Source of the DNA: Escherichia coli
Lineage (GTDB): Bacteria > Pseudomonadota > Gammaproteobacteria > Enterobacterales > Enterobacteriaceae
Assembly: GCF_029227855.1 (NCBI RefSeq)
Contig: NZ_CP074356.1
DNA length: 64,000 bases
Direction: 5' to 3' (one strand)
This document shows positions 57,767 to 58,590 of the stretch, piece by piece. The notes under the pieces were generated by a model. The model was not told where the DNA came from and searched no databases. It saw only the letters and a program-made list of their open reading frames with translations. The position numbers and the translations under genes were made by a program. The first letter of the stretch is position 1, and each line of letters begins with the position of its first letter.

Positions 57767-58168
57767 ATGTACGCAAAATCCTTTATCGCTCTTGATGGCA
57801 ACGGACGTCTGACGGGCGCCCGTACTGCACAGGACGCACCTTATGCTAACTACACCTGCCACTTGTGTGGCAGTGCACTCAGATACCATCCGCAATACGA
57901 CACTGAACTTCCCTGGTTTGAACACACTGACGACAGGCTGACAGAGCACGGTCAACAGTGCCCTTATGTCAGGCCGGAGCGCAGAGAAATACAGTTGATT
58001 AAACGTCTGCAGCAATTCGTATCGGATGCCTTACCCGTGGTGCGTAAAGCCAGCTGGCACTGCAGACAATGTCACCACGATTATTATGGGGAGCAGTACT
58101 GCACACACTGCCAGACCGGAGGATTCAGTATTCCCCGGACAACTCAGGAGGAAATATGCGAATTCTGA
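57767..58168 (+). CDS. Cys-rich zinc-ribbon protein (paralog 1)
   Basis: CHLCGS...QQCPY...WHCRQCHHDYYGEQYCTHCQTG; contains a PWFEH motif. Confidence 0.5.
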   Translation: MYAKSFIALDGNGRLTGARTAQDAPYANYTCHLCGSALRYHPQYDTELPWFEHTDDRLTEHGQQCPYVRPERREIQLIKRLQQFVSDALPVVRKASWHCRQCHHDYYGEQYCTHCQTGGFSIPRTTQEEICEF

Positions 58169-58590
58169 ACTGTTATATGGCGAATGACAGCAAAGGCCAT
58201 TTTGTTACGGCGAAAGAAGCTGCGAAGCACAACCGACAGGACGTTTTGTGCTGTGTGTCCTGTGGATGCCCGTTAACACTTCAGCGGGGCAATGACGGAC
58301 AACCACCGTGGTTTGAACATGACCAGATGACTGTCGCTGAAAAAATCCTGCTGCGATGTACCTGGCTTGACCCGGCGGAGAAAGAGGCCCGTCGTTTGCA
58401 TCTGCAGGGCATGACGGTTCCGGATTATACGGTGAAGGTGAGAAAGTGGTTTTGTGTGATGTGTGACGAAGATTATGAGGGGGAAAAGTGCTGCCCACGC
58501 TGCGGTACCGGGGTATACAGCAGGGCGTGGGGGCGGCAGGAGGTGCCGTCGGAAGATGCCAGGGCTGATAATCCGTTACAGAGGCTGTAA
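58156..58590 (+). CDS. Cys-rich zinc-ribbon protein (paralog 2)
   Basis: AGGAGG Shine-Dalgarno; CCVSCGC...PPWFEH...WFCVMCDEDYEGEKCCPRCGTG; same architecture as the upstream gene. Confidence 0.5.
   Translation: MRILNCYMANDSKGHFVTAKEAAKHNRQDVLCCVSCGCPLTLQRGNDGQPPWFEHDQMTVAEKILLRCTWLDPAEKEARRLHLQGMTVPDYTVKVRKWFCVMCDEDYEGEKCCPRCGTGVYSRAWGRQEVPSEDARADNPLQRL

Follow-up and report, generated by a model that had tools for sequence, protein, structure and literature searches.

ZnA and ZnB, two overlapping genes for small cysteine-rich proteins in the window (the whole stretch of 64,000 nucleotides of Escherichia coli DNA that was analyzed), form the last backbone element before the cargo of AlpA/Gp2-type islands of the CP4-57, CP4-44 and KpLE2 kind, and are not cargo themselves. 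Their products belong to a domain-of-unknown-function family that is already catalogued, annotated in RefSeq and ordinary in occurrence. This prior cataloguing, and the tight linkage of the pair to a Rep-like gene upstream, were two gaps in the earlier note that had described the reading frames from the sequence. About 70% of the complete E. coli genomes carry the pair, usually twice, and in a major island family it stands where the backbone gives way to variable cargo or defense genes. We give a probability of roughly 0.4 to the reading that ZnA and ZnB are a co-expressed complex of zinc proteins that would assist or regulate the Rep/AlpA module of the island. The leads offered by the pair are the conserved coupling of the two genes, their linkage to Gp2 and a conserved leader. 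The features of the region are listed in Table 1.

Table 1. Features of the ZnA-ZnB region and its surroundings, with positions in the window.
Feature	Position	Strand	Description
Rfam IS102 RNA (RF00124)	50995–51231	−	73.6 bits; upstream of the Ag43 autotransporter gene
Hypothetical gene, about 200 aa	54407–55024	−	Downstream of alpA; no Pfam family
AlpA-family regulator / recombination directionality factor	55104–55310	−	Orientation opposite to that of the Zn genes in E. coli
Hha/YmoA-family nucleoid-associated modulator gene	56017–56193	+	Pfam HHA, E = 1.5e-17; between alpA and the Gp2 gene
Small Cys-rich ORF, 66 aa	56539–56739	−	CxxC...CxxC, then a hydrophobic tail that probably spans the membrane; upstream of the Gp2 gene
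'Inovirus Gp2 family protein' gene	56938–57507	+	YagK_YfjJ_C, E = 4.9e-48; co-directional with and upstream of ZnA
Non-coding leader, 95 nt	57672–57766	+	Directly 5' of ZnA; unannotated
ZnA	57767–58168	+	133 aa; DUF7828 (predicted N-terminal CCHC finger plus helices) and Zn_ribbon_11 (predicted C4 ribbon)
ZnA-ZnB junction, predicted translational coupling	58146–58168	+	AGGAGG 58146–58151, ZnB ATG 58156, ZnA TGA 58166–58168
ZnB	58156–58590	+	144 aa; paralog of ZnA, same two domains
IS66-family element (tnpA/tnpB/tnpC)	about 58853–61100		Starts about 260 nt 3' of ZnB

The ZnA-ZnB gene pair and its protein family

Both proteins score well beyond the thresholds of two Pfam models, DUF7828 (PF25165; 106.8 bits for ZnA and 105.8 bits for ZnB, with a gathering score of 25.7) and Zn_ribbon_11 (PF11682, formerly DUF3279; 35.4 and 66.4 bits, with a gathering score of 24), and PF25165 is matched by all 35 aligned members of the family. 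Because the two proteins also align with each other in BLASTP (30% identity over 125 residues, E = 1e-14), the paralogy that the earlier note had proposed is real. The coordinates and sizes that it had assigned to the two reading frames are correct as well, and the features it had described at their junction are both present: an AGGAGG Shine-Dalgarno sequence, 4 nt upstream of the ATG of ZnB, and an overlap of 13 nt that places the stop codon of ZnA inside ZnB. An alternative in-frame ATG at 57761 would extend ZnA to 135 aa; the start was set at 57767, because orthologs keep MYAKSF as their N-terminus. RefSeq names ZnA a 'putative zinc ribbon protein' (WP_000270983.1) and ZnB a 'zinc-ribbon domain-containing protein' (WP_001221615.1), and the database clusters containing the exact sequences have 2,274 and 2,076 members, respectively. 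A scan of both proteins against NCBIfam returned no family match, and a search of the literature library on the family names and the RefSeq product names found no paper.

The PWFEH motif and the C-terminal CxxC...CxxCxTG cluster can be found in both proteins, in line with the initial description. The two CxxC pairs that had been ascribed to the N-terminus of each protein are an error, as that part of ZnA contains one CxxC (CHLC) only, and ZnB carries CCVSCGC. Among 35 diverged members there is no variation at residues C33, C36, F53, H55, C68, C100, C103, C113, and C116, as numbered in ZnB. The N-terminal CxxC, the His of WFEH and one later Cys are predicted to form a CCHC site, and C100, C103, C113, and C116 a C-terminal C4 ribbon; this ligand pattern implies two predicted structural zinc ions per protein. 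An AF2 model of ZnB, made with the 35-sequence alignment, is confident (pLDDT 89, pTM 0.60) and consists of an N-terminal β-rich zinc-finger domain, followed by helices and a C-terminal three-stranded ribbon. A sequence search of the PDB gave chance-level zinc-ribbon matches only (E of at least 0.74) and found no solved fold. We also considered an HNH-type nuclease reading of the C-x2-C...EH arrangement and rejected it: the sole invariant His is the predicted fourth zinc ligand, the Glu is variable, and no HNH profile matched. The family proteins are 126–162 aa long and near-neutral in charge (median pI 7.6), and general DNA binding therefore gains no support from their composition.

The earlier note had allowed that homologs might turn out to be confined to non-coding contexts. 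Orthologs of Hafnia paralvei, Superficieibacter, Yokenella regensburgei, and a Klebsiella IncFIB/HI1B plasmid served for comparison. The dN/dS values were 0.08–0.29 for ZnA and 0.10–0.23 for ZnB, and dS was close to saturation or past it wherever E. coli was one of the partners. Judged by these ratios both genes are under purifying selection, and ZnA and ZnB are thus coding genes and not chance ORFs. The order ZnA-then-ZnB and the 13-nt overlap ATGCGNATNCTGA are kept in 5 of 5 loci (E. coli, Hafnia, Superficieibacter, Yokenella, and the Klebsiella plasmid). From this conserved order and overlap we infer coupled translation and equimolar production, and hence probably a complex of the two proteins.

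When 1.84 billion cluster representatives were searched exhaustively with an HMM, only 265 proteins came up at E ≤ 0.001, of which 133 at E ≤ 1e-10; a scan of a genome collection with a narrower family alignment gave 7 loci. The named members come from Enterobacterales only, in Escherichia, Salmonella, Enterobacter, Citrobacter, Klebsiella, Serratia, and Budvicia, and further from Cronobacter, Trabulsiella, Hafnia, Yokenella, Lelliottia, and Moellerella. A tblastn search of 50,697 phage records found no family member; 32 plasmid records carry the family, chiefly large Klebsiella plasmids that bear the same island module. Within E. coli, the pair is present in 3,814 of 5,426 complete genomes, at a median of 2 and a maximum of 7 places per genome and nearly always on the chromosome, and 3,206 of these 5,426 genomes have an intact 1.9-kb block of Gp2, ZnA and ZnB, with a coverage of 80% or more. 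In K-12, a search confined to the CP4-44 region found no copy of ZnA or ZnB. Over most of its length, the window itself shares approximately 99.9% identity with E. coli E24377A.

The Zn genes are seen in single-copy, tandem and dispersed two-copy arrangements. Truncated, chimeric and deletion-fused variants are numerous in the databases (P0031, P0032, P0069, P0062–P0081, and P0296), P0031 and P0032 being ZnA-ZnB deletion fusions. The chimeric variants indicate frequent recombination among multiple island copies or paralogs, or assembly artifacts.

Island backbone, Rep-like neighbor and leader

Independent loci from isolates as well as metagenomes have an AlpA gene within 3 kb of the Zn genes in 14 of 14 cases, and a Gp2-like gene within the same distance in 13 of 14. 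The alpA gene of other genera is co-directional with the Zn genes and stands directly upstream of them. Beyond alpA, the window continues into a CP4-type arm with genes for a GTPase, Ag43, DUF932, antirestriction, RadC-like, and CbtA/YeeU proteins. The pair thus sits between the GTPase/DUF932/antirestriction arm and the variable cargo, as a member of the AlpA/Gp2-type island backbone. The DNA 3' of the Zn genes varies by locus and includes a type I restriction-modification (R-M) system, conflict-system genes, or an SMC-like ATPase, and elsewhere an arsenic operon, an RND pump, sugar genes, or IS elements. As the pair is the last backbone element before this cargo, a downstream defense neighborhood is common and not specific to it. 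A recent study describes a class of Pseudomonas islands that have IntY, AlpA, an inovirus Gp2-like protein and RadC as their core, carry defense systems and are transduced by a jumbo phage; the study reports no zinc-ribbon genes (PMC12595487), which suggests that the Zn pair is an enterobacterial addition to the backbone.

The gene upstream of ZnA encodes a protein of the YagK/YfjJ type, whose primary copies in ten loci keep both an HUH motif (HYHLML, an HYH with hydrophobic residues after it) and a YxxK motif (YLAK). Such motifs are hallmarks of rolling-circle initiators and relaxases. By its HUH and Tyr motifs the Gp2 gene appears Rep-like, with a putative nicking activity. The gene order of the operon is Gp2 – AlpA – ZnA – ZnB – Gp2' – (DUF2913) in Hafnia, Superficieibacter, Yokenella and the Klebsiella plasmid. 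Gp2' is a second Gp2 paralog, located 3' of ZnB, that has lost the HUH and Tyr motifs, and the primary Gp2 looks active. Gp2' (L006 8498–9061, L007 8504–9061, L008 about 8495–9040, and L019 9493–10059) resembles a catalytically dead Rep-like protein and is often followed by the DUF2913 gene; both are missing from the E. coli copies.

A direct fusion of the two kinds of protein is found in P0212 (454 aa; L003 2797–4161), in which a complete DUF7828 plus Zn_ribbon_11 module is joined to a divergent Gp2-like domain of about 300 residues on a single assembled metagenome contig of 4.8 kb. The relationship of this domain to Gp2 was detected by profile-profile comparison only (hhalign probability 96%, E = 1.3e-9), as BLASTP of the P0212 C-terminus was negative both against YfjJ and against the second Gp2 paralog. 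A further apparent fusion of Gp2 with ZnB, P0296, was discarded as evidence, since it is a deletion chimera with a truncated N-terminal finger. The yfjJ and yagK genes of K-12 presumably have no Zn-ribbon gene alongside; if so, the pair is dispensable for some Gp2 proteins.

The non-coding leader 5' of ZnA has a core, CTGCCCGTACCGGGACGGCTG, at 57709–57729. Between E. coli and the other genera the leader is 78–88% identical, versus 59–66% for the ZnA and ZnB coding sequences at the same four loci. It accompanies ZnA-type genes whether Gp2 or AlpA stands upstream. Altogether 3,773 E. coli genomes contain it, at 7,487 places, a distribution that matches that of the ZnA-ZnB pair. We regard the leader as a candidate sequence-specific site, be it an operator, a promoter or an origin-like element. 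The leader as a structured RNA was rejected for now: the sense strand gives a z-score of −0.6 with a covariation term of about 0, the only variable position of the stem disrupts pairing, and an Rfam search of the leader gave no match. A σ54 promoter was rejected too, since the GG-N10-GC at 57720–57733, though plausibly spaced from the start codon, represents a pattern that occurs at chance level (58 matches vs. 65.6 expected) and is absent from the two most diverged leaders. No σ70-like promoter was found in the gap between Gp2 and ZnA, and expression may therefore need a special factor.

Possible roles of the pair

In the reading that we prefer, ZnA and ZnB are translated in a coupled fashion from one message and, given this coupling and their co-conservation, probably form a complex. 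The complex would bind nucleic acid, or the neighboring HUH Rep-like Gp2 protein, and would be the subunit that lends specificity or control to the Rep/AlpA module for maintenance and mobilization of the island, with the leader as a candidate cis site. The probability given at the outset applies to the general statement that the complex assists or regulates this module. More narrowly, ZnA and ZnB may be a heteromeric DNA-recognition or control subunit of a putative HUH Rep-like (YagK/YfjJ) machine for replication or mobilization, which the very abundant CP4-57-type islands of Enterobacterales would share, and the leader its operator or origin; we consider this specific form doubtful, and would expect it to fail more often than to hold. 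If the pair works together with the Rep-like Gp2, this would help to explain the replication, movement or regulation of the islands, and a control subunit of Gp2 would provide a mechanism for the upkeep or movement of 'cryptic prophage-like' islands that carry defense genes.

Several known systems resemble the pair in part. HUH enzymes with attached zinc-finger domains, such as the Y-transposases of the IS91/Helitron type, and relaxosome accessory proteins likewise couple a zinc module to an HUH Rep-like protein, and by analogy this suggests a DNA-recognition or accessory role for ZnA and ZnB. In contrast to the IS91/Helitron-type proteins, ZnA and ZnB are normally separate polypeptides and are duplicated to a pair, and their zinc modules showed no homology to the fingers of those enzymes. 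The C-x2-C...(aromatic)-F-x-H...C finger of the family may also bear a distant resemblance to the N-terminal finger of CoiA, a PD-(D/E)XK nuclease with a small N-terminal zinc finger that resolves transformation D-loops (bioRxiv 10.1101/2024.02.06.579203). Weak matches to CoiA_N (PF25164) recur in 11 of 35 members at E < 0.1 (best E = 6.9e-5), and matches to DUF7830 in 9 of 35, all of them sub-threshold; ZnB scores 12.7 bits with CoiA_N, against a gathering cut-off of 26.3. Unlike CoiA, ZnA and ZnB have no PD-(D/E)XK nuclease domain (no Pfam match to PF06054 at E ≤ 1), and the C-terminal C4 ribbon stands in its place.

The earlier note had correctly recognized zinc-ribbon paralogs in an island and had thought of regulators or defense factors; neither role is established. 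PADLOC gave no match and Pfam no regulator family at E ≤ 1. We consider it rather unlikely that the two zinc-finger proteins regulate transcription of the island by a logic like that of Ogr/Delta, perhaps with autoregulation through the leader, independently of the Gp2 protein. Such a role would suit small proteins with two zinc modules each, whose genes adjoin the AlpA regulator in most genera, and it would suit a leader that is better conserved than the genes and always accompanies ZnA, next to a gap that lacks a σ70-like promoter. The Ogr and Delta proteins of phage P2 and satellite P4 are, like ZnA and ZnB, small zinc-binding proteins of integrative elements, and P4 Delta, a tandemly duplicated Ogr unit, is reminiscent of the paralogous pair. 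However, ZnA and ZnB share no sequence or profile similarity with Ogr/Delta and are not in phage records, and the islands have no late genes to activate. The Pfam search found no Ogr_Delta, DksA/TraR or HTH match in either protein at E ≤ 1, the near-neutral charge does not favor a regulator, and the bracketing of the pair by Gp2 paralogs and the fusion to a Gp2-like domain would be left unexplained.

Less probable still is a small two-gene system for anti-phage defense or anti-defense in the first slot of the cargo hotspot, a role for which co-translated gene pairs are typical. In related islands, type I R-M, an SMEK/CTD10-MC6-DUF2326 conflict system and SMC-like ATPases often lie directly 3' of the Zn genes, and the window also bears a large helicase-methylase-SNF2 cluster. 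Yet the position of the Zn genes is constant and it is the downstream cargo that varies, extending to sugar metabolism, arsenic resistance, an RND efflux pump and IS elements; with a median of two copies per genome, always together with AlpA/Gp2, its behavior is that of backbone rather than cargo. The absence of the family from the phage records also speaks against this role, and the PADLOC-DB v2 models gave nothing for ZnA and only PDC-S64 for ZnB (E = 0.063 over 30 residues). PHROG matches to the two proteins were absent below E = 0.018. That the reading frames are decaying remnants, or spurious frames devoid of a present function, is highly improbable: the islands are heavily degraded by IS elements, and the databases hold the many aberrant variants described above, but the low dN/dS values (with dS saturated), the invariant zinc ligands of 35 diverged members, the conserved overlap junction and intact copies in about 3,000 complete E. 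coli genomes all argue against decay.

Other features of the window

The hypothetical gene downstream of alpA (54407–55024) encodes a protein that is 27–29% identical (E = 1e-14 to 1e-15) to the products of two 177-aa genes of a metagenomic island (L022 5458–5991 and 7537–8067). These lie directly 5' of Zn-ribbon genes, and the hypothetical gene therefore probably belongs to the Zn module. The possibility that the 177-aa genes are Gp2-like was rejected on comparison. The small Cys-rich ORF on the opposite strand upstream of the Gp2 gene is annotated as hypothetical in RefSeq, is kept in other E. coli islands and gives weak matches to zinc-ribbon Pfam families.

In the IS66-family element 3' of ZnB, the tnpC ORF looks truncated or frameshifted (412 aa), and the window has one IS66 copy fewer at this site than E24377A. 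A defense-type cluster at about 31800–42750 comprises genes for a phosphorothioated-DNA-binding restriction endonuclease, a 1,126-aa DEAD/DEAH helicase, a 1,040-aa site-specific DNA methyltransferase and a 963-aa SNF2-related protein, identities that are taken from the RefSeq annotation of the near-identical region of E24377A. At the position that matches the IS102 RNA, the annotation of K-12 has the small RNA IsrC, beside flu.
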